64,000 nucleotides of DNA from Patescibacteria group bacterium (GTDB taxonomy: Bacteria; Patescibacteriota; Minisyncoccia; Phycocordibacterales; UBA9973). A model generated the notes under the pieces. That model was not told the DNA's origin and did no database searches. It saw nothing but the letters and a program-made list of their open reading frames with translations. Shown here one piece after another: positions 3,127 through 59,381 of this stretch (position 1 is the stretch's first letter; every line of letters starts with the position of its first letter). The stretch spans positions 7,534-71,533 of the forward strand of contig JBBUEH010000002.1 of NCBI GenBank assembly GCA_038078255.1. The letters are read 5' to 3'. The position numbers and the translations under genes were made by a program.

Positions 3127-3890
3127 TAAATGAGCAAGGGTAGTCCTTGCTCATTATTTGAGTTTGTGTATAATATATAGATGTATCGTAAAGCTCCATT
3201 TATTGAAAATGAACACTATCATATTTATTCTCGAGGAGTAGAAAAACGAAAAATTTTTCTTAATACAAAAGACTATAACCGTTTTGTGGCTCTTTTATAT
3301 ATTATGAATCAAAACATATCATTTAGAATGGATAATTTTTTGCGTAATGGAGAAAAAGACCTGGGAGAAATTTTCAAAGAGAAAAGGGGGGAAACTTTAG
3401 TGTCAATTCTAGGTTATTGTCTTATGCCAAATCATTTTCATATAATTTTATATGAACACACGGAGGGTGGGATTAGTAAATTCATGGGAAAACTTTTAAC
3501 CGCTTATTCAATGTATTTTAATACTAAATATGAGCGAAGTGGTCCCCTATTTACGCATCCTTTTAGATCAGAACACATTAAAGACGAGCCACAGTATATG
3601 TATATATTTTCTTATTTACACCTTAATCCACTTTCAATCATTTATAAAGAGTGGAAAGAAAATGGTATCAAAAATCGCCAAGAAGCAGAAAAATTTTTGA
3701 GAGAGTATAAATTTTCAAGCTATCAAGACTTTCTAGAAAAAGATCGATTGGAATCAGCAATTATTGATTTTATTCGTATCCCAAAATATATCAAGAATAT
3801 GAAATTAAATATAAAAACACAAGAACAAATATTTTCTGATAAAAGATCCATCGAGAAGCTTTGAGCAAGGACTACCCTTGCTCAAAGCTT
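3127..3890 (+). mobile_element. IS200/IS605-family single-ORF element (RAYT-like), bracketed by mutually inverted REP-like hairpins
   Basis: Left hairpin 3131-3153 is TGAGCAAGGGTAGTCCTTGCTCA; right hairpin 3862-3884 is TGAGCAAGGACTACCCTTGCTCA, the exact reverse complement. The right end extends to a 35-nt palindrome AAGCTTTGAGCAAGG..CCTTGCTCAAAGCTT at 3856-3890. The Y1 transposase ORF lies between them. Confidence 0.75.
3181..3864 (+). CDS. tnpA: IS200-like Y1 (HUH) tyrosine transposase TnpA / REP-associated tyrosine transposase
   Basis: HUH motif in LMPNHFHIIL and catalytic-Tyr region AYSMYFNTKYERSGPLF; typical IS200/RAYT N-terminus YHIYSRGVEKRKIF. Confidence 0.8.
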   Translation: MYRKAPFIENEHYHIYSRGVEKRKIFLNTKDYNRFVALLYIMNQNISFRMDNFLRNGEKDLGEIFKEKRGETLVSILGYCLMPNHFHIILYEHTEGGISKFMGKLLTAYSMYFNTKYERSGPLFTHPFRSEHIKDEPQYMYIFSYLHLNPLSIIYKEWKENGIKNRQEAEKFLREYKFSSYQDFLEKDRLESAIIDFIRIPKYIKNMKLNIKTQEQIFSDKRSIEKL

Positions 3891-5107
3891 TAATCAAAAT
3901 AATTTTTTAACCGTGCTATTTTTTCATGCTGGCGGAGTTTTTCGTGGACCTTCGCTTCGATTTGACGAATTCGTTCACGGGTTACATGAAATTCTTCGCC
4001 TACTCGCTCTAGGGTGTGCTGGATGCCATCTTTTAATCCATAGCGCATTTCTAAAATTCTACGCTCTTTCTCATTTAGTTCATCTAAGACTTCTTTAATT
4101 TGATCAGAAAGAATTCGACGAGAAGATTCTTGATCAGGACGCAAAATTTTATCATCTGGAATAAAGTTCTCCAGTGTTGATTTGTCGTCATCATCCCCCA
4201 CTGGTTGTTCAAGCGATACTGTCTCTTGCGAGATATTTTCAATCACATGAATTTTCTCCACTGGAAGACCCATTTCAGTCGCAATTTCTTCCGCCAACGG
4301 TTCACGACCTAAGTCTTGAGAGAGTCTACGGTGGGTTTGTTTATATTTAGAAATTGTTTCCACCATATGCACCGGTATACGAATAGTTCTCGACTGATCA
4401 GCCAATGCTCGAGTGATCGATTGGCGAATCCACCAAGTCGCATAAGTAGAAAATTTATACCCCTTCGTCCAATCAAATTTCTCTACCGCTTTGAACAAAC
4501 CCAAGTTCCCTTCCTGAATAAGGTCCAGGAGGGTCAGGTTGGCAGACCTGCCGGTATACTTTTTAGCAATAGAAACCACCAGACGCAAATTTGCTCGAGC
4601 TAATAAATTTTTTGCTTCTAAGTCGCCGTGTTCAATCCGTTTTGCCAGTTCCTTTTCTTCGCTTGCATGAATAAGCGGATACTGGCCTATTTCTTTGAGA
4701 TACATTTGAATAGAATCAGACATGATCGACTTGTTGATATCTTTATCAGACTGATCGTTGTCGAGGTTGAGCAGATTCCCCCCCTCCAACACATCGATTC
4801 CAGCAATACCGAATTTTTCATAAAGTTCATCTAAAAATAAAATATTATTTTCAATATCGGGAAAAGTTTTCAATATTTCATCGTAGGTGACGAACCCTCT
4901 TTTGCGCCCTTTTTCTATGAGTTCCTGCGATAAACGATCCAGATTTTCAGCTTTTCTTTCAGCTGAAGACAGTTTTCCGTCTTTTCGGCGGATCGCCGAT
5001 GAGACGATTTTTTTAAAAATCTTCTTCTTTGCTTTTTTGAAAATCTTTTTTTTCTTCTTTATAACTTTGATTTTTTTATTCAATTTTTTATTTTTCTTTT
5101 TTTTCAT
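3890..5107 (-). CDS. rpoD: RNA polymerase sigma-70 factor RpoD with Lys-rich N-terminal extension
   Basis: Regions 1.2 to 4 are conserved ([62 protein letters not shown]). The start codon is ambiguous within a poly-A/Lys tract. Confidence 0.9.
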
Positions 5108-6785
5108 GCTTTTTTTTATTTAACTCTTGTATTTCTTGTAATAGCTTGATCTCATCCGATTTGTCTTTGACTGCATGAAGCTCTTTCATTTTCTGCGACA
5201 GCTCTTCGTTTATTTTTTCTGTTTCTAGATTAGTAAGTAAATGGTCAATTTCCTTCTGCAAATCTTCACTATTTTGATAAAATACTTCTGCTTCAAAAAT
5301 TAAATCATCTTTTTCATTTCGGTATTTTTCTAAAGATACTCCCAGAATCTTCTCCAATTCATTATTCTGTTTCCAGAAAGCAATTCCTGCTAGTCTTCTC
5401 TCAATATAATCTTTTCGATACATCTTCGCAAGAGATTCTTCTGCCTCAATAATTTCTTTCTTTTCACTCTTTAACTCTTGCTCGACTTTCTGAAAATCAT
5501 CTTTGAGCGCAGACTCTGAAATTCCTGACAAATCGCTGATTTTTTTTATAAAATGCATTTTTTCTATCGAACTTTCGATGGCTCCGACAAATGGCAGTAC
5601 CTTATCTTTTATTTCTCTGCCAGCTTTGCGCATGTCATCCTTAGAATCCCTTAAAACTTTTTCTAGTATAAATTCTATTATGTGCTTCGAATTTTTTATT
5701 GCTTCTTTCCATGCCTCAGCGCCTTCCTTGAAAATCAAATCTGCTGGATCTACTCCCTCGAGCATTGATGCAACTTTTACATCCATCCCCAAGGATAGCG
5801 CAATGCGACCTGCGCGCAATGAAGCATTGAAACCTGCTTTGTCTGCATCGAATGCTAATACAACGTTTGGAGTAAGACGGCGAATCAGTCCAAGATTAGA
5901 AACTGTATTTTCTTTAGAAAGAGTGCTATCAGCAAGCGCAGTACCAGATGTTGCAATAGTATTTTTATATCCTGCCTGATGCGATAGTACTAAATCCATC
6001 TGACCTTCAACTAAAATTGAGAAATTATTCTTGCGAATAGATTCTTTGGCTTTGTCTAATCCATAAAGCACTGCATTTTTACTAAAAATAGGCGTTTCTG
6101 GACTGTTTAAATATTTCGCTGATTTCCCATCATCTATAAATATCCTACCAGAAAAAGCTATAATTCTGCCAGATGAATCTCCGATTGGGAACATCACTCG
6201 TCCGCGAAATCTGTCATACATAGCCTTGTTCTTATCTTCAGGATGTTTGGCCAACCCTGCTTTTTCTATTTCACTATCAGAAAAATTTTTAGATTTTAAA
6301 TAATCATAGAGTTTACGCCAGTCGAGCAAAGCAAACCCAATTCTGAAATCTTTAATACTTTTTTCTGTTAGCCCGCGAGATTTCAAATATTCTAGCGCTT
6401 CAATATTTCCAGCTAAATTATTTTCAAAAAACAAACTTGCCTCTTCCGTTACTCTGTATAACTTTTCTTTTTCACTTTCGGCTTCCTTCATTTCTTTACT
6501 GTAAACTTCAAGTGGGATTCCAGCTTTATTTGCCAGAAGTTTCAACGCTCCTCTGAAATCCAATCCCTCAAATTCTTCTACGAAAGTAAAGATATCTCCT
6601 GAAGCCCCGCAACCAAAACAATAATAACTTCCTCGATCGGGCGAGACAAAAAAGGACGGAGTTTTTTCGTTGTGAAAAGGACACTTGGCCTTCAGGTTTG
6701 CTCCTGCCCTTTCTAATTTTATATAAGTAGAGACTACTTCTTCGATTGTCAGTCTCTCCTTAATTTGTGAAACGGGTGAATTCAT
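5088..6785 (-). CDS. dnaG: DNA primase DnaG
   Basis: CHC2 zinc finger ([30 protein letters not shown]) and TOPRIM ([25 protein letters not shown]); classic dnaG-rpoD order. Confidence 0.9.
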
Positions 6786-6791
6786 AATTAA

Positions 6792-7079
6792 TTATTTTGT
6801 AAACTTAAATGTAGAAAGAATTTGATCAGCTTTCTCAAAAGAACCGCTAACAGAAACCATAAATCCATCACCGTTTTTATTAAAAACAGCTGGTTGTGTT
6901 GTTGCTTGAGTTGTTGGCTTTGTTTTCTGTAACCAAACAAAATAACCTGTTATCCCCAAAAGTACAACCAGCACCCCAATGAAAACTAGACTAGTAAAAC
7001 CTTTTTGATTATTTTTCATATTGTTTTTGGTTATGTCATTATTGGGCTTATAAAATAATGCTATTTTTAGACTTGACAC
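6792..7079 (-). CDS. small membrane/secreted protein ending in ...ILSTFKFTK (short paralog of the 211-aa protein at 11722-12357)
   Basis: N-terminal transmembrane helix. The C-terminal nonapeptide is shared with ORF 11722-12357, and the nucleotide junction TTTACAAAATAA..(A/G)TGAATTC is duplicated at both loci. Confidence 0.4.
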   Translation of the reverse strand: MSSLKIALFYKPNNDITKNNMKNNQKGFTSLVFIGVLVVLLGITGYFVWLQKTKPTTQATTQPAVFNKNGDGFMVSVSGSFEKADQILSTFKFTK

Positions 7080-7133
7080 ATACTCGACATTTGCTATACT
7101 TTACTCGTAAATGCTTTCCTTGTCGAAAGCTCC

Positions 7134-7158
7134 GAGAAACCCCCGAAAGGGGGTTTCG
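7134..7158. terminator. GC hairpin GAGAAACCCCC-GAAA-GGGGGTTTCG with flanking T-run; a repeat copy occurs at 11286-11312
   Basis: Perfect 9-bp stem directly 3' of the MazF-like gene 7163-7564 (minus strand). It is about 90% identical over about 35 nt to the element at 11268-11330. Confidence 0.55.
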
Positions 7159-7162
7159 TATT

Positions 7163-7564
7163 TTATACAATCTTACCTATTTTTACTTTTATCTCTTTTA
7201 ACTCTTCGTTCTCTATTTTACCCATAAGTCTTAATAATCTTTTTGCGTCAAAAAGTCTAACTTGCGAAAGTATTACCGTTGAATCAGAAAAAGAAATTAA
7301 TCTATGATAATATTTTCCATCTTTATTTTCATTTGAAGTTAAAGGAACTCCTAAAAATATATTATTGTTAAACTTTCTTACAATAAGAATTGGTCTTTCA
7401 AAAGTAGAATTTTTACCATCTTCTTCGTCTCCTATATTTTTACCTATTGATGTAAACCATACATCGCCTTTATGGAAATAAGCTCTTTTAGCTAAAGATA
7501 ATTGTTTTTTATTAATATTCCAATCATCATATTCTTTTTCCATATTTTTATTATCAGGAAACAA
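7163..7564 (-). CDS. MazF/PemK/EndoA-like endoribonuclease (toxin-fold) paralog 1, no cognate antitoxin gene
   Basis: Aligns to B. subtilis EndoA and E. coli MazF along its length ([31 protein letters not shown] vs [59 protein letters not shown] vs VILLEQIRTIDKQRLTDKI..). It overlaps the rpoC stop by 11 nt if the first ATG is used; the alternative start is ATG at 7543. Confidence 0.6.
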   Translation of the reverse strand: [133 protein letters not shown]

Positions 7565-10500
7565 TATTCTTACTTTTAAACCCTGTCCCAGCCGGAATTA
7601 GTCTTCCAATTATCACATTTTCTTTTAGACCTCGGAGAGAATCCACGCCACCCTTGATGGCATTTTCGATCAGCACCCGGTTAGTGTTTTGGAACGAGGC
7701 GGCAGAGAGCCAGCTTTTAGTGCGTAGTGATACTTCCGTAATGCCCAGCACCACTGTTTCGGCTTTTGCTTCTTTTCCACCTGACTGTTCAATTCTGACA
7801 TTCTCTTCTATGAGTGAAGTATTTTCAACGATATCACCGATAGAAAAATTCGTATCGCCTGCATCTTTTATTTTTCGACGAGAAAACATCTGGCGAATAA
7901 TTATTTCTGTGTGCTTTCGAGAAATCGAAGCGCTTTGTAATTCATAAACTTTATTTATTTCACGAATGATATATTCCTCAACAAATTCTTTGCCACCCCA
8001 TTTAAAAATTTCAGCAATATCAGCAGAACCATCAGTCAGAAGCTCTCCCGCTCCAACACGATCCCCTACCTTAACAATAGGCACTCTACGAAAGGCTACT
8101 GTATATTCCATCTCGTTTGGTTTACCATCAACTTTTGTATCTGATAATATTTTGATTACCTTTTCTTTCCCACCTACTCCGCCAGAAGCTGAATCTTTGG
8201 CTGTGATAGAAATAACCTCTCCGTTGGTTTCGGAAATAATTGCCGGATTTTTAGGAATTCTTCTTTCAAATATTTCTTCCACCCGAGGTAGCCCAGTGGT
8301 GATGTCTGTGCCAGCCACTCCTCCAGCATGAAAGGTGCGAAGGGTGAGCTGAGTTCCCGGCTCGCCTATCGCTTGAGCGGCAATGATCCCCACAGCTTCG
8401 CCCTGCTCCACTAGGCGATTCCGCCCCAGATCCAATCCGTAACACTGAACGCAAAGTCCATGAACAGTGTGACAAGTCAGTGGAGAACGAACAAAAACTT
8501 CTGTGAAACCCGCTTCTTCAATGTTGTATGCTTCTTCTTTGGTCACTAAAAATCCTCTCTTATAAACAGTTTTACCATTTTTGTCTTTCAGGTCTCCTGC
8601 TAAGATGCGCCCTCGAATATTTTTGGAAAGCGGAATTTCAATTCCAGAAATATTTTCTTTCGAAACAATCTTCCCTTCTTTAGTACCACAATCTTCTTCA
8701 GTAACAACCACATCCTGCGCCACATCAACCAATCTTCGGGTTAAATATCCAGCCTTGGCAGTATTGAGCGCAGTGTCAGAAGCGCCCTTTCTAGCGCCAT
8801 GAGTAATAACGAAATATTCAATCGGAGAAAGCCCTTCTTGATAACAAGGAATAATCGGAAACTCCAGTGTCCTCCCTTGGTTGTTTTGAATAAGTCCAAT
8901 CATTCCCGTCATTTGCATCAGAGAGCTCATCGTCCCTCGAGCCTTCGAAGTAAATAAATCATAAGTGGAACCGTTTTTTTCAAGCGTATTAGGTAGAACT
9001 TTCTCTAAATTTTTCTTGGTATGTGTCCAAATTTCAATAATTTTTTGATATTTTTCTTCTTCGGAAAGCAGACCTTCGTTCCACTGTGATATTATATCTT
9101 CTTCCAGTTTTTTGCCCTGCGCTATAATTTTGGGTTTCTCGGGGGGCACCGAAACATTATCCAACCCCCAGGTTGTACCAGAAACAGTTGAATATTTAAA
9201 ACCAAAGGCCTTAATCTTGTCTAAAATAGCAGGGGTATCGTCTATGCCATATTGCATAATGAGCTCATCTAGGAGCATGGACAATCTACCTTGGGTCATT
9301 TCATCATTCACATAGAAAAAATTAGAGGGTAGAATACTGTTGAAAAGTAATTTTCCGACAGAGGTGTCAAAAATTTTTCCATTAAATTTTTTGTATTTAT
9401 CTGAATCTGTGGCTAGCACTTTTATCTTCGCTCGAAGAGATACCACTCCGTATTCGTAAGCCAGAATTGCTGTATTGGGATTCGAAAAGTATTTGCCTTC
9501 ACCCTGTTCTCCATCAATATCTTTCGTCATCCAATAAGAACCAAGCACGATGTCCATACTGGGATGCACTATCGGATCGCCATTTTGGGGCTTGAGCAGA
9601 TTCTTATTTGATGCCATCAAATCCTTGGCTTCTCGTTGCGCTTCTTCAAGGAGAGGCACATAGACTGCCATTTGGTCTCCATCAAAGTCAGCATTGAAAG
9701 CCTGACATACTAGGGGGTGAACCTGAATAGCATTTCCTTCAATCAAAATAGGATTAAAAGCCTGGATACCCAGACGATGCAGAGTCGGCGCGCGGTTCAA
9801 AAGAACGAATTTACCTTTAATCACTTCTTCTAAAATGGCCCAGATTTCTCCTCCTCTCTCTTCTATCAATTTATTGGCACCCCGAATATTGAAGGCCAGT
9901 TCGGCGTGTAAAATTTTCGAAATTATAAATGGTTTGAAAAGTTCTAGCGCCATGTGTTTAGGCAATCCGCATTGATTTAATTTAAGTTCGGGGCCAACCA
10001 CAATAACTGAACGACCAGAATAGTCCACTCGTTTCCCGAGCAAATTCTGACGGAAGAGTCCCTGTTTCGATTTCAAGTTATCGGAAAGAGATTTCAACGG
10101 TCGTTTTTGAGACTGACTCATAGCGGCATTATCATTTTGTTTGGCAATAGAGTTGTCAATCAATGCATCCACTGCTTCTTGAATAATTCTTTTTTCATTT
10201 CGCAGAATAACATCCGGAGCGTTAATTTCTTTCAACTTCTTTAAACGATTATTTCTGTTGATCACTCGACGATAAAGATCGTTTAAGTCAGAGGTTGCAT
10301 GTCTCCCCCCGTCTAGCGCCACCATCGGACGAAGGACGGGCGGAATAACTGGAATAGTGGTTAAGAACATCCACTCGGGACGAATTCCCGCATAATTCAT
10401 CGCCCGAAGAAGCGAAAGCCTTTTTTGCAATTTTTCTTTTTCAGCCATACTGGCCTTCTCTAGCATTTTTTCGGTGTGAACTTTTAATTTGTTTAAATCA

Positions 10501-11174
10501 AGATTTTTAAAAATAGAATAGATCGCTTCAGCGCCAATGTTGGCTTCAAAGCAAGTTCCGTATTTCAAAGAATAATGATGAAAAGAAATTTCATTAAGCA
10601 CTTTCCCTTCGTAGATTTCTCCAATTTCCTTTTTCGTAATGGAAAGTAAATTTTTCAATTTCTCTCGGGTATCGTCATCATTCGCATTTTTTAACTTCGC
10701 TTTGTATTCTTTATCTAAACCGGTCATTAATTTTTCTTTTTCTTCTTCGTGCACACGAGTTATGATGTAACCAGCAAAATATATTACCTTTTCAAGGTCC
10801 GAGACAGAAATGTTCAACAAGATGCTCATTCGAGAAGGCACCCCCCTTAAGAACCAAATATGCGACACCGGAGTAGAAAGTTCAATATGCCCCATTCGTT
10901 CTCGTCTGACTATCGAACGAGTCACTTCCACTCCGCATTTCTCGCAAATAATATCTTTGTAACGGATGCGGCGATATTTTCCACAATAACATTCATAATC
11001 TTTTTCCGGTCCGAATATTTTTTCATCAAAAAGACCCCCTCGCTCAGACCTCCCTGTACGATAATTTATCGTTTCGGGCTTGGTTACTTCGCCATAAGAC
11101 CATTCTTTAATCTGCTCCGGTGAAGCCAAACGAAGCGCAATACTATCAAAATCAGTGGTGTTTAAAGTTTTCAT
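7554..11174 (-). CDS. rpoC: DNA-directed RNA polymerase subunit beta'
   Basis: N-terminal Zn ribbon ([23 protein letters not shown]), [11 protein letters not shown] catalytic motif, 1206 aa. Confidence 0.95.
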
Positions 11175-11245
11175 GTTATTGTTTCTTTGCTTTTAATAAT
11201 AATTTCTTATTTTGTTAATCTACTCCACCTCCTTGACTTTTATAT

Positions 11246-11719
11246 TCATTGGTTTATACTATCCGTATTAGTGGCTTCGGCCTCCGAGAAAGCCCCCGCA
11301 AGGGGGTTTTCGATTTTAAGGAGATTTTGCAACATTATAATTACTTCTTTAAAATCTGCTTCAGATATAGAGCCTACTTTTCTTAACAATCTTTTTGTGC
11401 TTATTGCTTTTACTTGAGACAAAACAACCCAGGATTTTAACTCTGTATGATTTAGCTTAAAGTAATATTTATTATTTTTCCCTTGAGTTGTAAGTGGTAA
11501 CGCCCACACCATATCTGCATTAAATTTTTTTATAATTAACATTGGTCTTTCAAAGTTTTCATGTTTCCCATCTGATTCCACACCAATATTAAGCCCAGCG
11601 CTACACCACCATATTTCCCGAGCATAAAAGAAAAGCTCTGTGTTTACGCTTTTCGCATCTACAAACTTTTTCTCTATATTCCATTTATCAAAATCTTTTT
11701 TATATTCCATGGAATTCAC
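11246..11719 (-). CDS. MazF/PemK/EndoA-like endoribonuclease paralog 2 (GTG or ATG-11710 start), C-terminally extended by read-through into the hairpin element
   Basis: Clear paralog of 7163-7564 (W.I.KK, NIG.E.DGK..FERP.LI..KFN, PLT, KYY, VILSQV, KRLLR). Its C-terminal 20 aa (ENPLAGAFSEAEATNTD) are translated from the hairpin repeat at 11268-11330. Confidence 0.6.
   Translation of the reverse strand: MNSMEYKKDFDKWNIEKKFVDAKSVNTELFFYAREIWWCSAGLNIGVESDGKHENFERPMLIIKKFNADMVWALPLTTQGKNNKYYFKLNHTELKSWVVLSQVKAISTKRLLRKVGSISEADFKEVIIMLQNLLKIENPLAGAFSEAEATNTDSINQ
11286..11312. repeat. second copy of the GAGAAAGCCCCC-GCAA-GGGGGTTTTCG hairpin element (inside the 3' end of ORF 11246-11719)
   Basis: About 90% identical to 7118-7170 and in the same position relative to the MazF-like paralog. 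Confidence 0.55.
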
Positions 11720-11721
11720 TG

Positions 11722-12357
11722 TTATTTTGTAAATTTAAAAGTGGAAAGAACATCATCAAAATCTTGCCAAACTCGTTCGGTCTTACTATCTCCGCCAGTA
11801 TCCAACAAAAAGATCACTTTATTATTTTCAATAATTACTGTTTTCCCATAACCCAATCCCTCCCATGAATAACTAATGGCCTTATGTTCAGCCAAGGTTT
11901 TATTTTCAAAATCAGCAAAACCATCTCCATTATAATTTGAAAAACTTCTATTGTATTCATCTTCTGCCCAATCTATGAGTGAAAGTTGCTTAGAATTATC
12001 CCACACGCCTATACTTATACTTGATAAAGGACCATATCCACCCTCTCCAGGACCGATTGTTGTACTATCAAGGATCACTGTAAACAAGCTTCCTCGAACT
12101 GTAGACTTGTCAAAAATCCTAATTGTATAAACTGGTGGATAACTGAACTCAAATTTGTATTGATCATTTCTATATATTTGCCAAGTTGATGTTACATCCT
12201 GTCGTGGAAAATAAACTTTATTTATCGTACAATCACGTGTGTGTTCGCCAAAGAAAGGTGCATTGCAGGTTCCTCGAACACCCCAAACTCCAAGATACAC
12301 CAGAGCTAGTAAACCAAGTATTTGCATGTAAGGAATATTTTTAAAATAATTTTTCAT
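11722..12357 (-). CDS. secreted/membrane-anchored hypothetical protein ending ...VLSTFKFTK, inserted between rpoB and rpoC
   Basis: N-terminal signal/transmembrane segment (MKNYFKNIPYMQILGLLALVYLGVWGV). The C-terminal nonapeptide and downstream junction are shared with 6792-7079; an NGDGF motif is also shared. Confidence 0.45.
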   Translation of the reverse strand: MKNYFKNIPYMQILGLLALVYLGVWGVRGTCNAPFFGEHTRDCTINKVYFPRQDVTSTWQIYRNDQYKFEFSYPPVYTIRIFDKSTVRGSLFTVILDSTTIGPGEGGYGPLSSISIGVWDNSKQLSLIDWAEDEYNRSFSNYNGDGFADFENKTLAEHKAISYSWEGLGYGKTVIIENNKVIFLLDTGGDSKTERVWQDFDDVLSTFKFTK

Positions 12358-12367
12358 ATTTTTTCAA

Positions 12368-15300
12368 TTAATTTTTCCCTGATTTTCTAAGATCGACATC
12401 CAGCGCCAAGCCCCGCAGATAATTTAGAAGCACATTGAACGAGGCGGGAGAATTCGGCGGTCGAATCGTTTCATTTTTAATAATGGAATCAAAGGTTGCT
12501 GATCGGCCTTGAATGTCATCTGATTTAATCGTCAGCATTTCACGCAAAGTATAAGCCGCCCCATAACCTTCGAGCGCCCAGACTTCCATTTCTCCAAATC
12601 TCTGTCCTCCGCCTTGAGCTTTTCCGCCCAAGGGTTGCTGGGTAATGAGAGAGTAAGGACCAATCGAACGCATATGAATTTTATCCTCTACCATGTGATG
12701 CAGTTTAAGCATGTACATATATCCTACTGCGACATCTTGCTCGAAAGCCTCCCCCGTCCGTCCATCAAAGAGTTTCACTTTTCCAGATTCTGGCAGTCCC
12801 GCTTTTACTAATTCTTCTTTTATTTCTTCGTGCTTCGCTCCCAGAAAGGGCGGAACGATAGCCTGATAACCCAAACTATTCGCCGCCATCCCAAGGTGCA
12901 TTTCTAAAATTTGCCCCAAGTTCATCCGAGAAGGAACACCAAGGGGTGAGAGAATAATATCAACCGGTGTGCCGTCAGCAGTGTAAGGCATGTCTTCTTC
13001 TGGTAAAATCGTGGAGATCACCCCCTTGTTCCCATGTCGTCCAGAGAGCTTGTCTCCGACTGAAATATTTCTAATCTGCGCCACTTCAATCACGATTTTT
13101 TTTATAATTCCCGCTTCCAGCGAATGTCCCAGATCACGAGAAAAGATCTTTACCCCAATAATTCTTCCTCGTTTGCCATGTTCCATTCGAAGCGAAGTAT
13201 CTTTCACATCCCGAGCTTTCTCCGCAAAGATTGAACGAAGCAATCGTTCTTCGGGAGTCAGTTCCGTTTCACCTTTAGGAGTAATCTTGCCCACCAAAAT
13301 ATCATTTTCCCGAACCTCTGCTCCAATACGAACGACGCCATCTTCATCCAGATCTTTCAATTTTAATTCTCCGACATTCGGTATATCTCGAGTAGTAATT
13401 TCAGGTCCCAACTTTGTATCCCGAACGACGGAAGTAAATTCTTCAACATAAACAGAAGTGAATTTGCTCTTTTTAACCAGTCGTTCCGAAACAATGATCG
13501 CATCTTCGTAAGTTGATCCAGACCAAGACAAAAAAGCCACAAAAATATTCTGACCCAAGGAAATTTGTCCACCGACTGTACTGCTAGTGTCTGCTAAGAC
13601 GGCCCCTTTCTTTATTTTGTCGCCGACATCCACAGAAGGTCGTTGATGAAACACAGAAAAGTTGTTATTCCGTATAAAATTTACTAAAGAATAAGTCTTT
13701 TCCGTTTTTCCTTTCACCACAATTTTTTTCGCATCTAAATACGAGACCACACCATCTTCTTCTGCTAAAATCAATCGCCCAGAATCTCGGGAAGCTAACT
13801 CTTCCATCCCTGTCGCCACCAAGGGCGCTTCGGGGAGAACACAAGGCACCGCTTGCTTCTGCATGTTTGATCCCATTAGAGCGCGATTGGCATTGTTGTG
13901 TTCTAAAAACGGAATCATCGAGGTCGCAATAGAGAAAGCTTGGTTGGTCGCCACATCAATAAAGTCCACTTCTTCCCGAGCGACAGTACCCGGTTCTGTT
14001 TTAATTCGAGCTTCTACTTTTTCCTCGGTTATTTTGCCATTTTCATCATAGGGAACCCCCGCATGCGCAATATTATATTTTTCTTCCTCCAGCGCATTCA
14101 GATACACCACCTCTCCAGTCAATTTCCCATTCTTCACCTTGATATAAGGAGTTTCAATAATTCCAAATTCATTTATTTTGGCATAAGTAGATAAGTGCAG
14201 AATCAGTCCAATGTTCGGACCTTCAGGAGTATGAATCGGACACACTCTTCCATAGTGCGAAGGATGCACATCCCGAACTTCGAGCCCTGCTCGTTCCCGA
14301 GTCAATCCGCCGGGGCCGAGCGCCGAGAGCTGTCTAATGTGCTCTGTTTCCACCAACACATTTTCTTGATTCATAAATTGAGAAAGCTGGTTGGTAGTGA
14401 AAAATTCTTTGATACGAGCTTGGAGTGGTCGCTGGTTGATAATAGCGATAGGCATCGCTGTATCCACATCAATAATAGACATTCTGTCTTGAACATTTCT
14501 CTTGATCTGCATCATACCCGTACGGACTTTCTGTTGCAGTATTTCACCCACAAATCGCACCCGCCTCTGACCCAAATGGTCAATGTCGTCGCTCTTTGCT
14601 CCTGGAGTATTGTTCAAAGAAATAATGTGCATGATGACAGTGGCTAGATCTTCTTTAGAAATAGTACGACGAAGAAGAGCTTGTTCATCCATGGGCTTAT
14701 TAAATCGCTGATTAAATCTAAATCTACCAACCGGAGAAAGGTCATATCGCTCAGCGGTAAACAAAGAATCAATAAATTCTTTAGCATTATCAGCTGTGGC
14801 CATATCTCCATCTCTGAGACGCTTATATATTTCTATATAGGCATCGTTTATATTTTTTAGTCCATCTTTCGCCAAACAAATCTTTATTGTTTCTTCAAAA
14901 TTCGAACTTAATTCTGTTTTACCACTGAATGCCTTTAAAATAGCTTCATCCGTCTCATAACCCATCGCCCGCAGGAGCGCAGTTGCGGGGAATTTTCTTT
15001 TTTTATCTATTCTGATATAAATTGCCCCATCAGATTCGGACTCTATCTCAATCCAAACTCCCCGAGCTGGAATAATTTTTGCTCCAAAATATCTGTTCCC
15101 CTTACTTTCGGATTCAGTAAAGAAAACTCCGAAGCTTCTCGCTAGTTGTGGAACGATGACCCGCTCTACGCCATTGATGATAAAAGTCCCATGCGAAGTC
15201 ATTAAAGGAAAATCCGACATGAAAATTTCTTGCTCCTTCACTGTGCCTAAGATTTTATTAGTCAATTTTACCCGCGCTTTCAACTGCCCCTGATAGGAGA

Positions 15301-15547
15301 GCTTATTTATTTTTGCATTATTTTCGTCTTGCTTAGACTCACCTAGTGTGAAAGAAGTAAATTCCAGTTGAAATTTCTTGGAAGAATAATCACTAATGGG
15401 AGAAAATTCTTTTAAAACTTCGCCGATGCCGATCTCGGTCAGCCACTTGAAACTCTTGACTTGAGCTTCAATTAAATTAGGAAATTCCACGAGGGGCTTT
15501 TTATACCTCCCAAAATATTTCTTCGGACGCTTTGTATCTATATGCAT
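12368..15547 (-). CDS. rpoB: DNA-directed RNA polymerase subunit beta
   Basis: GDKLSGRHGNKGVIS and other conserved RpoB blocks; 1059 aa. Confidence 0.95.
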   Translation of the reverse strand: MHIDTKRPKKYFGRYKKPLVEFPNLIEAQVKSFKWLTEIGIGEVLKEFSPISDYSSKKFQLEFTSFTLGESKQDENNAKINKLSYQGQLKARVKLTNKILGTVKEQEIFMSDFPLMTSHGTFIINGVERVIVPQLARSFGVFFTESESKGNRYFGAKIIPARGVWIEIESESDGAIYIRIDKKRKFPATALLRAMGYETDEAILKAFSGKTELSSNFEETIKICLAKDGLKNINDAYIEIYKRLRDGDMATADNAKEFIDSLFTAERYDLSPVGRFRFNQRFNKPMDEQALLRRTISKEDLATVIMHIISLNNTPGAKSDDIDHLGQRRVRFVGEILQQKVRTGMMQIKRNVQDRMSIIDVDTAMPIAIINQRPLQARIKEFFTTNQLSQFMNQENVLVETEHIRQLSALGPGGLTRERAGLEVRDVHPSHYGRVCPIHTPEGPNIGLILHLSTYAKINEFGIIETPYIKVKNGKLTGEVVYLNALEEEKYNIAHAGVPYDENGKITEEKVEARIKTEPGTVAREEVDFIDVATNQAFSIATSMIPFLEHNNANRALMGSNMQKQAVPCVLPEAPLVATGMEELASRDSGRLILAEEDGVVSYLDAKKIVVKGKTEKTYSLVNFIRNNNFSVFHQRPSVDVGDKIKKGAVLADTSSTVGGQISLGQNIFVAFLSWSGSTYEDAIIVSERLVKKSKFTSVYVEEFTSVVRDTKLGPEITTRDIPNVGELKLKDLDEDGVVRIGAEVRENDILVGKITPKGETELTPEERLLRSIFAEKARDVKDTSLRMEHGKRGRIIGVKIFSRDLGHSLEAGIIKKIVIEVAQIRNISVGDKLSGRHGNKGVISTILPEEDMPYTADGTPVDIILSPLGVPSRMNLGQILEMHLGMAANSLGYQAIVPPFLGAKHEEIKEELVKAGLPESGKVKLFDGRTGEAFEQDVAVGYMYMLKLHHMVEDKIHMRSIGPYSLITQQPLGGKAQGGGQRFGEMEVWALEGYGAAYTLREMLTIKSDDIQGRSATFDSIIKNETIRPPNSPASFNVLLNYLRGLALDVDLRKSGKN

Positions 15548-15674
15548 AAATTAAAAAAGGGCCAATTATTTTATAGCCAGCTTATAATTAATAAGGAGAT
15601 TGCATCCGATACTCAATCAATGAATCTCAACCAGCCTACTCTATTTACTATTTTTTGTCAACTAATTTTGTGAA

Positions 15675-16325
15675 TTAAGTTTTTGGTTGATATTTTTCCA
15701 GCCGCCAATCTAAAGATAATTTTTCAGCTAATTCTGGATCGACTGGATGGCGTTCAAATAAATTTTTATCCAAATTGAAGTTGGAATCATATTGAATAAG
15801 TGCACCTTGTGGATGCAAAACTCTCTCCATTTCCTCCACTACACTATCCGCATATTCTTTTTGCATTACAGATTCTAGCTGACTAGCAAAAATACTGACA
15901 CTTTTATCTGGCAACCTTCTTAAAAAACTCAACGCATCCGCCTTCACTGCCGTACGGGCAATTTGAGATAATAAATAGTGTGAAGTAGCCTGTTCAGCTT
16001 CTTCTAGGAATTGTTTTAGATTATCCACAAAATCATATGGTTCAACTCCTATGTACGCTTTTGCTCCAGAAAGTAAGACTACTTGGTAACCTGTTAATAA
16101 CTCGCCAGGCCCAATTTCCACAACAATTTGCCCCTTGAAAGGTTTAAAGAACTCTTGCAACTCAGGACTTTTACGCAACCCCTCCCTAATTTGAGCAGAC
16201 ACATTAGCCGGTTTGAGTGATCTGTATAATTCTTTTGGTTCCAATGGAAGAGGAGGTCTTATGTTTGGAATAATCGCCTCAACAGCAACAACACCAGATT
16301 CATTTGTTATCTTTTTTCCTTCCAT
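15675..16325 (-). CDS. hypothetical protein, possibly class I SAM-dependent methyltransferase-like
   Basis: [12 protein letters not shown] resembles methyltransferase motif I; there is no other recognisable signature. Confidence 0.3.
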
Positions 16326-16507
16326 TGGTTTATTTTAGCATGATTCCCAGAAAGTAAAACTTTCGGAACTTTATAATTTTTGCCACGGTATTTTAGAACT
16401 TCCGGTCGAGTGTAAACTTCGCTAGTAGATATGCGTTCTTCTTCTAGAGATTCATATCTGCCCAGGACTCCCGGAATCTGGCGTGAAATTGAGTCTATCA
16501 GAACCAT
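16307..16507 (-). pseudogene. orphan 3'-terminal fragment of trmD (diverged duplicate of the 3' end of the intact trmD at 19250-19951)
   Basis: Protein [55 protein letters not shown] matches the TrmD C-terminus. It is about 88% nucleotide identical over about 195 nt to 19283-19476. Confidence 0.75.
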
Positions 16508-16709
16508 CGCTGGAAGTTCGCCACCGGTACAAGGTGGGTCTGGAAACCTTAAACGCTTCTTTGGTTGCTAGATCCCCATACTTCTCCCAGAAAGCTAGAA
16601 CCCGGCACCTTTCTTTTGCTTGTTCGGTAATCATATACCGAAATCGTAGCACTCTTTGCCAGATGGTGATGAAGCCCTTGGTTCCTTTAAATTTGTTAAA
16701 TTGTCGCAT
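16452..16709 (-). pseudogene. transposase N-terminal helix-turn-helix remnant (IS3/IS481-like) running out of frame into the trmD fragment
   Basis: [26 protein letters not shown] is a typical transposase HTH. There is no catalytic domain and the frame collides with the trmD fragment. Confidence 0.45.
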
Positions 16710-16775
16710 TCTCCTTTTTGATTAAAGGAGTCTCATATGTATCTGAACTTATGCAATGCAGACTGGGGATTAAAT

Positions 16776-16813
16776 AATTACCTAACTTTTCCGACCAGTA
16801 GAATTGGGTAATT
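16776..16813. repeat. hairpin repeat AATTACCTAA-N18-TTGGGTAATT (copy 1 of 2; copy 2 at 18103-18140)
   Basis: 10-bp inverted repeat arms. The two copies share about 36 of 38 nt and both sit at 3' ends of island genes, so they are probably terminators. Confidence 0.5.
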
Positions 16814-17407
16814 TTATATTTTCACTGACCGGAATAAATCTATGATCGACACCACATATTTATCTACTTCTTCCATATATAAAACTTTTTCAGATAAAGA
16901 TAATTGGTGAAAATTTTTAGATTTAATAAAAATAGATAATTTTTCCTGTAAAGTTTTAATTTCCGATTTTAATTGATTATCTTCAGTAAACTCAATAATA
17001 GCTCCCACATAATTGAAAATAGACTGAAGGCGATTTACCCGCAATTTACTTTTTTCTCTTAATTGATAATACACTTTATAATCATCAGGGGCTTCTGTTT
17101 CTAGTCTTTCAGAAAAAGCTTTTCTTGATTCATGATCTTTGTCAAAACCATCAATTAAAATAACTGATTGGTGATTTAAAATTTCTAACAGACCTTCTAT
17201 GTATCTCAATATTTGCACTGGTGACTGAGGTATTGTAAATTGTGTGAACTTAGGATTAAAATCTTTTTCATAGATCACAATGTTCCTATCAGCAATTTTC
17301 ACTGTTTCCTTTAGCTTATAGCCACAAGTTTCCATGGTTTGTTCAAACTCACTCTTTGGTTGTGCTTCTCCTGGGTTCATATTTCTATTATAACTCTTTA
17401 TTTCCAC
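16814..17407 (-). CDS. hypothetical protein (island cargo)
   Basis: 197-aa ORF with good coding statistics and no recognisable domain. Confidence 0.4.
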   Translation of the reverse strand: MEIKSYNRNMNPGEAQPKSEFEQTMETCGYKLKETVKIADRNIVIYEKDFNPKFTQFTIPQSPVQILRYIEGLLEILNHQSVILIDGFDKDHESRKAFSERLETEAPDDYKVYYQLREKSKLRVNRLQSIFNYVGAIIEFTEDNQLKSEIKTLQEKLSIFIKSKNFHQLSLSEKVLYMEEVDKYVVSIIDLFRSVKI

Positions 17408-17444
17408 CTATTCCACGCATAGATAATACTGTGGATAACTATCC

Positions 17445-17481: not shown

Positions 17482-17730
17482 ATGACCACAAAAACATTAT
17501 CTACAACAGAAGCAAGGGAAAGGATAAGCGACTTGGTAAATATCGTGTCTACGAGTCGTAAATCTATCGTCATCGGTCGTAGAAATGTACCCGAAGTGGT
17601 GCTTATTCCCTTTCCTGCATTTTGGAATGGTAAACTATCTGAAATAACAAACATAAACTCATATTCTAAAAGTTTTGACTTTCTAAAAAACGAACCTGAA
17701 ATTTATTCTATTAAAGATATTAAAAAATAG
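17482..17730 (+). CDS. Phd/YefM-family antitoxin
   Basis: TLSTTEARERISDLVNIVSTSRKSIVIGRRNVPEVVLIPF matches the Phd/YefM N-terminal fold; the stop is 2 nt before the toxin start. Confidence 0.65.
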   Translation: MTTKTLSTTEARERISDLVNIVSTSRKSIVIGRRNVPEVVLIPFPAFWNGKLSEITNINSYSKSFDFLKNEPEIYSIKDIKK

Positions 17731-17732
17731 AA

Positions 17733-18074
17733 ATGTATAAAATTGGAGATATAATCTTGACACCTTTCCCATTTACAGATCTTTCAGGAAACAAAGTTCG
17801 TCCTACCCTAATACTAGGCACGCAACCAGGTGGCGATGATGTTACAGTTTGTTTTATTTCTTCTAATTTAGAAAATAAAATTCATAAATTTAATATTTTA
17901 ATAGATTTAAAAGAAAAAAATTTTAGTAAAACTGGATTAAAATTAAAATCAGTTATTAAAGTAACGAAAATCGCCACTCTGGACAAAATAGTTATTCTGG
18001 GAAAAATCGGAGAATTAGATAATGAAACTATGAATAAGGTAGGGAAAGTTTTAAAAACTTATTTAAATCTATAA
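17733..18074 (+). CDS. PemK/MazF-family toxin (mRNA interferase)
   Basis: GDIILTPFPFTDLSGNKVRPTLILG...VTVCFISSN is the PemK/MazF signature. It is translationally coupled to the upstream antitoxin. Confidence 0.7.
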   Translation: MYKIGDIILTPFPFTDLSGNKVRPTLILGTQPGGDDVTVCFISSNLENKIHKFNILIDLKEKNFSKTGLKLKSVIKVTKIATLDKIVILGKIGELDNETMNKVGKVLKTYLNL

Positions 18075-19249: not shown

Positions 19250-19951
19250 TCATCCTCGCTTCTTCCACGCATCGATAAGTTTATGATTCCCAGAGAGTAA
19301 AACTTTCGGTACTTTATAATTCTTACCCCCATATTTTAGAACTTCCGGTCGAGTGTAAACTTCGCTACTTGAGACTCTTTCTTCTTCTAGAGATTCATAT
19401 TTACCCAAGACTCCGGGAATTTGACGCGAGATGCAATCGATCAGAACCATCGCTGGAAGCTCGCCACCAGTCAGCACATAATCCCCAATTGAAATTTCTT
19501 CCAGCCCTCCAGGGGCGAGTAAACCTTTGAGAATTTTCCCTACTCTTGCATCTATGCCTTCATATCTGCCAGAAATTAAAATAATATCCGTGTATTTCTG
19601 CTTCACCAACTTTTTCGCATAAGTTGTGTCGAACTTTTTACCAGAGGGAGAAAATAAAATAATCTTTATTGTCCCTTTCTTAGCTTTCTTGTCCGCCATA
19701 GCTTTAGCGACGGCAGAAAGCAGTGGCTCGGCTTTCATCACCATTCCGGGTCCGCCACCGTAGGGCTTGTCATCTACTGGACGATACCCATTATCTTTCA
19801 GCGCCCCGCCACGGCGGGCAGGCTTTATAAAATCACGAGGATTATAGAAATTAAAATTTATTAATTTATTCTTCACCGCCCGCCCGATAATAGACTCTTT
19901 GAGATAAGAATCGAACATCTCCGGAAAAATTGTAATAATATGAAATTTCAT
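19250..19951 (-). CDS. trmD: tRNA (guanine37-N1)-methyltransferase TrmD
   Basis: SPOUT fold; conserved GRYEGIDARV.. and C-terminal [15 protein letters not shown]...[10 protein letters not shown]. Confidence 0.9.
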   Translation of the reverse strand: MKFHIITIFPEMFDSYLKESIIGRAVKNKLINFNFYNPRDFIKPARRGGALKDNGYRPVDDKPYGGGPGMVMKAEPLLSAVAKAMADKKAKKGTIKIILFSPSGKKFDTTYAKKLVKQKYTDIILISGRYEGIDARVGKILKGLLAPGGLEEISIGDYVLTGGELPAMVLIDCISRQIPGVLGKYESLEEERVSSSEVYTRPEVLKYGGKNYKVPKVLLSGNHKLIDAWKKRG

Positions 19952-30539: not shown

Positions 30540-30770
30540 TTATTTGCCCGCTTCCGCCTGCTTTGCTTTTGTCTTTTTCTGTTTCTTTTCTATTTTCTTC
30601 ACTAAATCTAAAACTTTTTTGCCCCGATAAAACCCACAAGATACGCACACCGTATGGCGCCTCTTCAGGGCCTGACAGTTTTCGCACTTGGCAAAACTCG
30701 TACTTTTGAGCGCATGATGCGAGCGCCTATTCTTCGTATGCGATTTTGTATGTCTCATTCGAACTACCAT
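30540..30770 (-). CDS. rpmF: 50S ribosomal protein L32
   Basis: MRHTKSHTKNRRSHHALK....CENCQALKRRHTVCVSCGFYRGKKV. Confidence 0.85.
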   Translation of the reverse strand: MVVRMRHTKSHTKNRRSHHALKSTSFAKCENCQALKRRHTVCVSCGFYRGKKVLDLVKKIEKKQKKTKAKQAEAGK

Positions 30771-30839
30771 AATATTTCCATCTTAGCACATTACTAACGA
30801 AAAGCAACAAAAAATTTTGGGAAAATAATTAAATATGTT

Positions 30840-58927: not shown

Positions 58928-59069
58928 CCCAGTATTATGTAAAGAGACAGCCTAAGCTGTCTCTTTAAAAACGAACGAGCATTTTTAGTGACCTCCTGTC
59001 ATAAAGAATTTGACTTGAGATTAATAATGGCGACCTTTGATATTATAGCACAAAAATAATGGAAGCAAG

Positions 59070-59158
59070 CGGAGCCGGGCGGATTCGAACCGCCGAGGGG
59101 TTTTGAAGCCCCTGCCTCTTTAGCAAAGAGGTACGTTAGACCACTCTGACACGGCTCC
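59070..59158 (-). tRNA. tRNA-Ser (anticodon GCU), class II
   Basis: Acceptor GGAGCCG/CGGCTCC; anticodon arm CCTCT-TTGCTAA-AGAGG; long variable arm; T-arm GGCGG-TTCGAAT-CCGCC; discriminator G; no encoded CCA. Confidence 0.8.
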
Positions 59159-59233
59159 ATTTCACCTAAATACTCTAACACATTATTATTGATTTTCCAT
59201 TTCATTTTTTTCTGCTATACTTTCTTTGCTTTT

Positions 59234-59320: not shown

Positions 59321-59381
59321 CCTTCGGTTTGCAATAGCGAACCTTTAATGTAATGAAATCAATTATAGAAAATAAAAAAAT

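Follow-up and report, generated by a model that had tools for sequence, protein, structure and literature searches.

A PemK/MazF-family toxin gene with a predicted convergent antisense RNA in DNA inserted between rpoB and rpoC of a Patescibacteria group bacterium

The adjacency of rpoB and rpoC has been described as part of a universally conserved locus (bioRxiv 10.1101/2025.04.14.645983). In a stretch of 64,000 nucleotides (nt) from a Patescibacteria group bacterium (contig JBBUEH010000002.1; hereafter the window) the two genes are 1193 nt apart from the rpoB stop to the rpoC start, which is well beyond adjacency within ~100 nt. These 1.2 kb are genuine accessory DNA at a junction that has been struck repeatedly and independently in the Nomurabacteria-like clade to which the window belongs. 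They hold two open reading frames (ORFs), ORF-A for an exported or membrane-anchored protein and ORF-B for a protein of the PemK/MazF fold, together with a predicted small RNA (sRNA) gene that lies wholly within the 3' end of ORF-B on the opposite strand. We favour, with moderate confidence, the reading that the toxin and its convergent antisense sRNA form a selfish module, type I-like in its control although its toxin is of a type II family, which would ride on read-through from rpoB; the function is deduced from the sequences described below.

An earlier note on this DNA had placed a signal-peptide protein and a MazF/EndoA-like ribonuclease (RNase) between rpoB and rpoC at 11175-12367. The coordinates proved exact, rpoB and rpoC are both intact with full-length NCBIfam matches, and all four genes lie on the minus strand (Table 1). 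The note had given all the spacers as 2-10 nt, which is wrong for the last of them: the spacers are 10 nt for rpoB/ORF-A, 2 nt (GTG start) or 11 nt (ATG start) for ORF-A/ORF-B and 71 nt for ORF-B/rpoC, the ATG at 11710 being the start of ORF-B preferred by gene callers and by the alignment of homologues. The note had concluded from the spacers that both genes are almost certainly co-transcribed with rpoB and rpoC, a degree of certainty that the 71-nt spacer does not support. It had counted two inserted genes, which holds for the protein genes but overlooks the overlapping third gene for the sRNA, and it had called them unrelated, whereas they are not a random pair, as ORF-A-like and PemK-subfamily genes adjoin again in three other loci (L215, L016 and L004; L numbers denote loci used for comparison). 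A second PemK/sRNA pair just past rpoC is also missing from the note.

ORF-B matches the Pfam family PemK_toxin (PF02452; E=4e-14, 53.1 bits against a cut-off of 23.1) and is annotated by NCBI as a type II PemK/MazF toxin. Its 254 homologues, up to 87% identical and many at 70-87%, come from Nomurabacteria, Zambryskibacteria and 'Minisyncoccia', and the family has a conserved N-terminal extension of ~30 amino acids (aa) with the motif KDFDKWNxEKK. E54-R55-P56 is invariant and L73-T74 nearly so, T74 being kept in at least 90% of 58 homologues; we take R55 and T74 to be the catalytic Arg and Thr of MazF (R29 and T52 in the E. coli protein), going by alignment to MazF chains. The profile of the ORF-B family, when searched against the Protein Data Bank (PDB), matches MazF/EndoA chains only. 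Similarly, the AlphaFold2 model of ORF-B, with a mean predicted local distance difference test (pLDDT) score of 66, has MazF-family proteins as all of its top 50 Foldseek matches in PDB (E ~2e-3, template modelling (TM) score 0.35-0.48). Considering the Pfam match, the conserved R55/T74 and the exclusively MazF-like structural matches, ORF-B is plausibly an active endoribonuclease. PADLOC defence models gave no matches to ORF-A, ORF-B or the second PemK gene of the window (PemK2). ORF-B is 82% identical to the Zambryskibacteria copy, whereas rpoB is 69% identical, a difference which points to horizontal spread of the toxin or to a very strong constraint on it.

The MazF domain of ORF-B ends near residue 134 (~11309) and the last ~20 codons are the sRNA gene read in frame. 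In the protein alignment this tail (KIENPLAGAFSEAEATNT...) looks conserved. On detailed examination, it was found that the homologue P0035 ends in PLAGGFLGGRSH, which is the DNA of the tail read at +1, one base out of frame, and that homologues of 129-130 aa stop before the tail, the same DNA element sitting after the stop codon in L033. The conservation is therefore that of DNA and not of protein, and the tail was rejected as a protein motif.

In DNA alignments the element is recognised by a hairpin with covariation, by CTCGGAGGCCGAAGCC, which is invariant, and by the blocks AGTATA and GTCAAG. When read antisense, these blocks turn into a -35 box TTGAC(A/T), a spacer of 16-18 nt, a -10 box TATACT or TATAAT, a gap of 4-6 nt and then an RNA with the consensus UAUUAGU, GGC(UUCG)GCC, UCCGA, a GC-rich stem-loop of 9-12 bp and CGAUUUU. 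The predicted RNA of the ORF-B copy accordingly consists of a 5' UAUUAGU, the hairpin P1 GGC(UUCG)GCC (11273-11282), the linker UCCGA and a terminator stem-loop GAAAGCCCCC-GCAA-GGGGGUUUUC at 11288-11311, which is followed by GAUUUU. Promoter and terminator consensus sequences were scanned for over 6700-12600 on both strands, with sites of at least 9/12 regarded as promoter-like. The top promoter match of these ~6 kb is at 7073-7100 (11/12, with TG) and the one at 11233-11260 (10/12) is joint second; both read along the plus strand and coincide with the 3' ends of the two PemK-subfamily genes. Between ORF-B and rpoC, the same scan gave no promoter-like (at least 9/12) or terminator-like site for the minus strand.

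A covariance model, R1, was built from 26 copies of the sRNA and searched against the window with filters off. It matches only two places in the 64 kb, 11265-11321 (70.7 bits, E=2e-27) and 7105-7167 (34.7 bits, E=6e-12), and in 1.4 Mb of rpoC- and toxin-anchored loci it matches only beside PemK-subfamily genes, plus two orphans in the same intervals. Its matches number 51 in all, at 43 loci. An equivalent promoter of at least 9/12 is present in 44 of 49 homologous elements, with the end of the -10 box 4-6 nt before the RNA in 39 of these 44. All copies fold as P1 and a terminator stem of 9-12 bp followed by U's, and RNAalifold recovered P1 together with the basal part of the terminator stem and showed compensatory changes in 5 pairs. 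Across the 51-copy alignment, 95.9% of cells are paired against 82.4% in shuffles, and double changes occur in 57 cells against 15.4 expected, a count reached by none of 500 shuffles; all measures collapse once the pairing partners are slid by 1-3 columns. Covariation is seen in the terminator stem. Rfam 15 at gathering thresholds detected only three tRNAs in the window and assigned the sRNA to no family, and even at E<=10 there was no credible match in 11100-11500 (the best reached 17.6 bits where the gathering threshold is 90), and on these grounds the element was judged not to be a tRNA-like element, a ribozyme or a member of a known RNA family.

Additional copies were obtained from metagenomes by scanning for the exact 16-mer of the RNA core, GGCUUCGGCCUCCGAG. 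Amongst 135 instances, 41 are real elements and the rest are mostly chance occurrences in GC-rich coding DNA; the scan thus provided ~40 AT-rich loci in which the element marks the end of a PemK-subfamily gene with 30-85% identity to ORF-B. Since most metagenome copies were ascertained by the exact 16-mer, the invariance of the core in them is by construction. Among copies not ascertained in this way, about half have the exact core, including L033 and L090, and the rest are variants with the same architecture.

The same element could also be thought of as working on the sense strand or as DNA, either as a stabiliser or terminator in the 3' untranslated region of the toxin mRNA or as a site of recombination or mobility (resembling attC or the end of an IS200/IS605-type element), which we regard as unlikely. 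It is always found at the 3' end of the toxin gene, the DNA homology between this module and that of L215 ends at ~11232, exactly at the -35 box of the sRNA promoter and at the outer edge of the element, a Y1 transposase gene lies ~7 kb off (3181-3864), and the hairpin is present in the sense RNA too. Counts of G-U against A-C cells are uninformative as to the strand (~22 G-U and ~20 non-standard cells) and favour neither clearly. However, the pair of -35 and -10 boxes found in 44/49 copies, with a spacing of 16-18 nt and 4-6 nt ahead of the structure, is readable only in the antisense direction, and it is only on that strand that a U-tract comes after the stem. The sense hairpin is weaker, with an A-C mismatch, and has no U's after it; the fold z-score of the window copy on the sense strand is -0.47, like that of shuffles, against -1.8 for antisense 11262-11325 and -4.3 for antisense 7103-7170. 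A non-exhaustive search showed no integrase and no matching left-end hairpin, and in this non-exhaustive test an integron attC site or IS200/IS605 end was set aside, as the promoter-terminator reading accounts for all the conserved blocks.

A further feature was noticed upstream of the sRNA in other contigs. The exact DnaA-box 9-mer (TTATCCACA) abuts the -35 box of the sRNA promoter in 9 of 50 copies from other contigs (L170, L188, L189, two in L158, L203, two in L193, and L129), 44-60 nt upstream of the sRNA start, and four more copies have it with one mismatch; it is absent at both sRNA copies of the window. This hints at control of the sRNA by DnaA in a sub-branch. In the window itself the exact 9-mer occurs six times in the 64 kb (16021, 17430, 19962, 43337, 48188 and 51040) against 0.58 expected from shuffles, six being reached in 0 of 100 shuffles; the sites are scattered and do not form an origin-like cluster.

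The partnership of toxin and RNA is seen most clearly in loci that were not ascertained by the RNA, where an sRNA-like element accompanies 16 of 16 PemK genes (13 by the model at E<1e-3, L042 weakly, and the two in L016 recognised by eye). One copy is found per toxin gene, downstream and on the opposite strand, with no repeat array. In the loci examined orphan sRNAs do occur whereas toxins without the sRNA were not seen, and this asymmetry is a prediction of a toxin-antitoxin pair. The orphans are at L004 (8473-8535) and L044 (13599-13654), and the copy of L139 (2698-2756) stands beside a C-terminal PemK remnant of 54 aa. The window carries a second module of the same kind on the other side of rpoC, so that rpoC is flanked by PemK/sRNA modules on both sides. 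The second toxin starts 10 nt past the rpoC stop and is 40% identical to ORF-B and 80% identical to the 126-aa toxin P126 of L215; its sRNA has a longer P1 (GCUUUC...GAAAGC) and a terminator at 7136-7157 that was flagged by the scan. In L215 both toxin types are present, each with the matching RNA type.

A survey of what lies within 400 nt of 45 PemK-subfamily ORFs (38 loci) showed no small cytoplasmic protein conserved as a partner; nothing recurs there except exported proteins like ORF-A, rpoC, dnaG and further PemKs. On the basis of these comparisons, the sRNA probably stands in for the missing protein antitoxin. It seems to us improbable that the pair is a standard type II module in which a protein antitoxin has escaped notice (be it ORF-A, the toxin's N-terminal extension or an unannotated small ORF), with the RNA only fine-tuning expression, as aMEF does for mazEF. 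Such a module would agree with the NCBI label of ORF-B and with the place of ORF-A, 11 nt ahead of the toxin gene in the usual position of an antitoxin and in an order that recurs in L215; moreover, an antisense RNA modulating a type II mazEF locus has been described (PMC8749433), and some Campylobacterota homologues have small ORFs of DNA-binding type downstream. On the other hand, ORF-A has a signal or anchor and belongs to an exported, in part lipoprotein, family, so that it cannot meet a cytoplasmic RNase, and most PemK-subfamily genes have neither an ORF-A-like neighbour nor any other conserved small protein alongside. In L004, L015, L033 and L044 the copies are flanked by rpoC, dnaG or other large genes and there is no room for an antitoxin gene. 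The window does have a third PemK with a classical Phd/YefM partner, but this PemK is unrelated to ORF-B in sequence (E=0.11). One of the DnaA boxes mentioned above (17430-17438) sits 44 nt upstream of the start of that Phd/YefM antitoxin.

ORF-A itself has no match in Pfam (E<0.01) or NCBIfam. It carries the motif W-x-Y-x-N-x-x-Y-x-F-E-F-x-Y-P and the C-terminus STFKFTK, which in the family-wide form read W-K-T-Y-T-N-x-x-Y-G-F-E-F-x-Y-P and STFKFTK, with a signal-anchor or lipoprotein signal (in some members of the type LAAGC). Among 12 homologues found, those at 43-66% identity carry the domain PsbP_2 (PF18933), and the positional counterpart in L018 matches PsbP_2 with 33 bits against a cut-off of 27. 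ORF-A-like paralogues populate the rpoC-dnaG interval in several relatives, and in the window a 75-aa remnant of the family follows the second toxin module. The gene order of L215 is rpoB-rpoC-...-A1-PemK(126)-sRNA-A2-PemK(147)-sRNA-dnaG. Since ORF-A of the window is closest to A1 of this locus (51%) while ORF-B is closest to the toxin after A2 (84%), the comparison suggests that the conserved 3' ends of the A genes mediated recombination. Most probably ORF-A is a bystander, a paralogue from a locally expanding exported family, and not the partner of the toxin; as an antitoxin it was rejected, being of an exported family and absent at most PemK loci.

In order to place the insert in its lineage, one genome per species was scanned with the first 400 residues of RpoC, which gave 80 loci of Nomurabacteria/Paceibacteria type, 80-96% identical in this part, with rpoB 75-93% identical to that of the window. 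The gap between rpoB and rpoC could be counted in the 79 loci holding both gene ends; L004 was found via its toxin and is kept separate. In 75 of these 79 species representatives rpoB is directly followed by rpoC (gaps of -11 to 114 nt), which bears out the earlier view of the arrangement as unusual and led to its rejection as a lineage-wide conserved feature. The other four (L016, L018, L021 and L068) have inserts of 765-1451 nt with contents that are all different (Table 1). In the window, L018 and L021 the first inserted gene starts at the position of the rpoC start of uninterrupted relatives and with the same first bases (ATGAAAA). In L068 a duplicate of ~30 nt of the 5' end of rpoC (ATGAAAACTTTAAACACAACTGAATTTGAT) is found at the left junction of the insert and looks like the footprint of an insertion event. 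The usual cluster of the clade is rpoB-rpoC-dnaG-rpoD, without the preceding rplKAJL (window 3890-15547, loci L014-L093), and 60 of 70 species have dnaG starting no more than 150 nt after rpoC. Seven of the 70 have an insert longer than 400 nt between rpoC and dnaG, with a PemK-subfamily gene in four of these seven. Both junctions flanking rpoC are thus recurrent landing sites for genes of toxin, nuclease and defence type, of which the window is one instance, and the insert is a real, strain-stable and clade-sporadic acquisition at a hotspot. No direct description of a separation of rpoB and rpoC was found in literature searches.

The module is not confined to this operon. Of 24 metagenome copies in a location-blind sample, a single one is near rpoC, one contig bears three copies, and homologues of the ORF-B subfamily are found on Campylobacterota plasmids. 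The module is therefore a general mobile element, as follows from the location-blind sample and the triple copy, and its rpoBC location is local to this clade. These observations also bear on the idea that a MazF-like protein has been domesticated as a regulator of RNA polymerase synthesis, processing the rpoB-rpoC transcript from a position that is itself functional. At least 9 related species, besides the window, do have a PemK-subfamily gene between rpoB and rpoC or just behind rpoC, the protein is unusually conserved and the target of the sRNA would fall within the rpoC leader; yet the distribution is sporadic, with PemK missing from the vicinity of rpoBC in ~70 of 80 related species, unrelated cargo occupies the same junctions, 23 of the 24 location-blind copies are elsewhere and some homologues are plasmid-borne. 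We consider domestication very unlikely.

A misjoin at the rpoB-rpoC junction is excluded for practical purposes, because the same order is found on 7 contigs and in a collinear independent assembly rich in indels. The window comes from a metagenome-assembled genome recorded as 'Patescibacteria group bacterium' (ORF-B, MEK9181483.1, PemK/MazF toxin; ORF-A, MEK9181484.1, hypothetical). An exactly identical ORF-A, in an identical gene order, is present on 7 Hainich groundwater metagenome contigs from several samples, the longest shown being 69 kb (ERZ1292616). The separate assembly ERZ1286166 has the same gene order on contig_642 (L214), which matches window 5000-17000 in one stretch of 11.3 kb at 98.5% identity with 77 gaps, and its many frameshifted gene fragments are like those of an uncorrected long-read assembly. 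That the contig falsely joins rpoB and rpoC via unrelated DNA, a concern in a metagenome assembly of a clade whose several similar PemK and ORF-A paralogues could mislead assemblers, is hardly credible in view of this agreement, the clean gene boundaries at both junctions of full-length rpoB and rpoC and the comparable inserts at this junction in five further genomes, which other groups assembled.

How a toxin-sRNA module would operate in such a place can be outlined from the predicted signals. The toxin gene would have no promoter of its own and would be transcribed via read-through from rpoB, while the convergent sRNA would be made constitutively. Neutralisation could follow either of two routes: the sRNA may pair with the perfectly complementary 3' segment of the toxin transcript (type I-like, cf. 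RatA/txpA and SR4/bsrG), or it may act as a decoy that binds the RNase (type III-like). A pair of this kind would be addictive, which would explain its persistence in the middle of an essential operon as well as orphan sRNAs without orphan toxins. As no promoter was detected ahead of rpoC, rpoC would need to be expressed by read-through across the sRNA region, where the sense hairpin has no U-tract; read-through to rpoC appears likeliest since no minus-strand promoter or U-tract terminator was found before it. If so, the polycistronic RNA would hold a stretch of ~52 nt perfectly complementary to the sRNA, ending 43 nt before the rpoC start, and the rpoC leader would thereby contain a target of the sRNA. 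A more far-reaching proposal can be made only tentatively and is rather doubtful, namely that a widespread MazF/PemK-fold family of Patescibacteria has no protein antitoxin at all, and that one of its modules has entered the RNA polymerase core operon, where the toxin would be expressed only via rpoB read-through and, with the sRNA target in the rpoC leader, synthesis of the β' subunit and control of the toxin might both be coupled to this one RNA.

Several points weigh against the proposed module and its mechanism. The promoter, terminator and RNA are predictions, and the AlphaFold2 model of ORF-B is of modest quality (pLDDT 66, TM 0.35-0.48). The core GGCUUCGGCCUCCGAG is identical beside PemK proteins that are only 44-45% identical (L033, L090), which a pure antisense mechanism leaves unexplained. 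Some homologues on Campylobacterota plasmids have small helix-turn-helix- or ribbon-helix-helix-like ORFs just downstream, possibly protein antitoxins, and an RNA antitoxin may not be the rule for the whole family. ORF-A-like and PemK genes are adjacent with tiny spacers in several loci, and a functional link between them is possible. Finally, the 71-nt spacer and the 3' end of ORF-B together carry a predicted near-consensus promoter directed against the operon as well as a GC-rich hairpin, and the latter might partly terminate sense transcription before rpoC, at odds with simple co-transcription.

Table 1. Coordinates of features in the window and contents of rpoB-rpoC inserts in related loci
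Feature	Location	Position	Strand	Evidence or remark
rpoB, RNA polymerase β subunit, 1059 aa	window	12368-15547	minus	NCBIfam PRK00405, 1435.8 bits, cut-off 896, full length
ORF-A, exported or membrane-anchored, 211 aa	window	11722-12357	minus	N-terminal hydrophobic signal/anchor
ORF-B, PemK/MazF fold, 154 aa from ATG at 11710 (157 aa from GTG at 11719)	window	11246-11710	minus	Pfam PF02452
Antisense sRNA, ~52 nt	window	11266-11318	plus	predicted; covariance model R1
sRNA promoter, sigma-70 type, TTGACT-16-TATACT	window	11233-11260	plus	predicted; 10/12 consensus match
AT-rich leader, 58 nt, from sRNA promoter to rpoC start codon	window	11175-11232	minus	
rpoC, β' subunit, 1206 aa	window	7554-11174	minus	TIGR02386, 1487.7 bits, cut-off 963.5, full length
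Second PemK-subfamily toxin, 126 aa	window	7163-7543	minus	PF02452, E=1.9e-10, 41.4 bits, cut-off 23.1
Second sRNA gene; promoter TTGACA-16-TATACT with TG at 7073-7100, RNA ~7105-7167	window	7073-7167	plus	predicted
ORF-A-like remnant, 75 aa, anchor and STFKFTK kept	window	6792-7019	minus	family hidden Markov model, E=4e-13
dnaG (5088-6785) and rpoD (3890-5107), conserved partners downstream of rpoBC in the clade	window	3890-6785	minus	Pfam and gene table
Third PemK (17733-18074) with Phd/YefM-like antitoxin (17482-17730)	window	17482-18074	plus	classical type II pair
rpoB-rpoC insert: PemK-subfamily gene and small membrane protein	L016			
rpoB-rpoC insert: ORF-A-like PsbP_2 protein and Bro-N protein	L018	5578-6417 (Bro-N)		Bro-N immediately upstream of rpoC
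rpoB-rpoC insert: ORF-A-like (PsbP-like) protein and RelB/YafQ pair	L021			
rpoB-rpoC insert: NYN nuclease	L068	9226-10001		
rpoB-rpoC insert: Bro-N protein	L004	3459-4289		immediately upstream of rpoC; PADLOC PDC-S13 (candidate defence family), E=2e-118

A few neighbouring features of the window may be recorded here. An IS200/IS605-type Y1 transposase gene (227 aa, PF01797, 3181-3864) lies next to rpoD, on its far side, where the rpoB-rpoC-dnaG-rpoD cluster ends. An ORF of 66 aa (16307-16507), found ~800 nt upstream of rpoB, corresponds only to the C-terminal part of TrmD (PF01746, E=1.4e-10), while a full-length trmD of 233 aa is found at 19250-19951; the small piece is probably a duplicated fragment left by rearrangement. 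Two divergent tRNA-Ser genes lie 75 nt apart (59069-59322), for which ARAGORN gives the anticodons GCT (59069-59158) and ACT (59234-59322), the latter being unusual.

In this clade, a junction treated as nearly inviolable tolerates, and repeatedly gains, cargo of selfish or defence type, which bears on the evolution of operons in reduced genomes. If the proposed module is real, a MazF/PemK subfamily with an antisense sRNA as its constant partner would blur the classification into types I, II and III, and it would have been mis-annotated wholesale, NCBI calling it a type II toxin and gene callers translating an RNA gene as a protein tail. It would also add a defined sRNA to Patescibacteria, in which, to our knowledge, almost no regulatory RNAs are known. 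In literature searches, no direct description was found of a PemK/MazF toxin with an antisense RNA antitoxin, nor of one in toxin-antitoxin surveys of the candidate phyla radiation (CPR).

As in the canonical rplKAJL-rpoBC operon, rpoB precedes rpoC on one strand and no promoter was detected ahead of rpoC; the differences are that the clade lacks rplKAJL upstream and has dnaG-rpoD downstream, and that here rpoB and rpoC are 1.2 kb apart. MazF and PemK proteins are textbook type II toxins. The window copies resemble them in matching PF02452 above threshold (both copies), in the Arg-Pro and Thr positions and in having structural matches to MazF only, and differ in that no MazE/PemI-type antitoxin is adjacent in any of the 38 loci, in the N-terminal extension of ~30 aa and in having a convergent sRNA gene as the invariable partner.

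Amongst type I systems, SR4 (bsrG) and SR6 (yonT) of Bacillus subtilis are described as short convergent antisense RNAs overlapping the 3' end of their targets (PMC3834814, PMC5848175). With txpA/RatA, bsrG/SR4 and yonT/SR6 the present module shares a short convergent RNA that is equipped with a separate promoter and terminator and overlaps the toxin transcript at its 3' end, all of this being predicted here, and its orphan antitoxin RNAs and decayed toxins are as expected of such pairs. However, the toxins of those systems are small hydrophobic peptides, whereas here a soluble RNase fold of 126-160 aa is encoded, and the 16-nt RNA core identical across distant toxins would not be needed for simple pairing. 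A precedent for an RNA antitoxin against an enzymatic toxin exists in symE/SymR and ralR/RalA of E. coli, described as RNA antitoxins controlling nuclease-type protein toxins (PMC1891008, PMC4041452). Neither toxin has the MazF fold: SymE has an AbrB/MazE-like fold and SymR overlaps its 5' end, while RalA acts in trans with 16 nt of complementarity.

ToxN, the toxin of one of the type III systems (ToxIN, CptIN, TenpIN), is structurally related to Kid/MazF. In these systems an RNA inhibits an endoribonuclease toxin, and the conserved RNA core seen here would fit binding to a protein. Type III antitoxins are described as tandem repeats that are encoded ahead of the toxin gene, on its own strand, and that the toxin processes (PMC3401426, PMC8860590), whereas here one RNA copy is encoded beyond the toxin gene, on the other strand.

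The nearest experimentally studied counterpart may be on a plasmid of Campylobacter jejuni, pVir, for which a validated type I pair cjrA/cjpT has been reported (Shen et al. 2016, Mol Microbiol 101:909, as cited in PMC7826846 and PMC10470494). pVir encodes a PemK-subfamily member, WP_011117588.1, that is 32% identical to ORF-B and has the N-terminus FDEWNEVKK as in the ORF-B family; it is the only Pfam-recognised toxin-family gene found on the plasmid (ten small ORFs having been scanned) and the only toxin named in its annotation. The gene (30634-31038, in the region 30634-31160 of L218, NC_008770) has no adjacent small protein ORF; its stop codon coincides with a hairpin, and from 90 nt downstream a TG-extended promoter points back at it. 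The candidate antisense RNA (31040-31120 on the minus strand; fold z=-3.2) would be ~80 nt long and has no detectable sequence similarity to the Patescibacteria RNA. Similarly, a PemK-subfamily gene on a Nitratiruptor plasmid (L216, 1501-1960) has a stop-codon hairpin and a TG-extended promoter pointing back. The module may correspond to cjrA/cjpT if CjpT is WP_011117588.1, but the latter could instead be VirT, the RNase toxin of the type II pair of pVir. If cjrA/cjpT is of the same kind, an experimentally studied plasmid system would be linked to dozens of loci of uncultured lineages, and possibly to many more.

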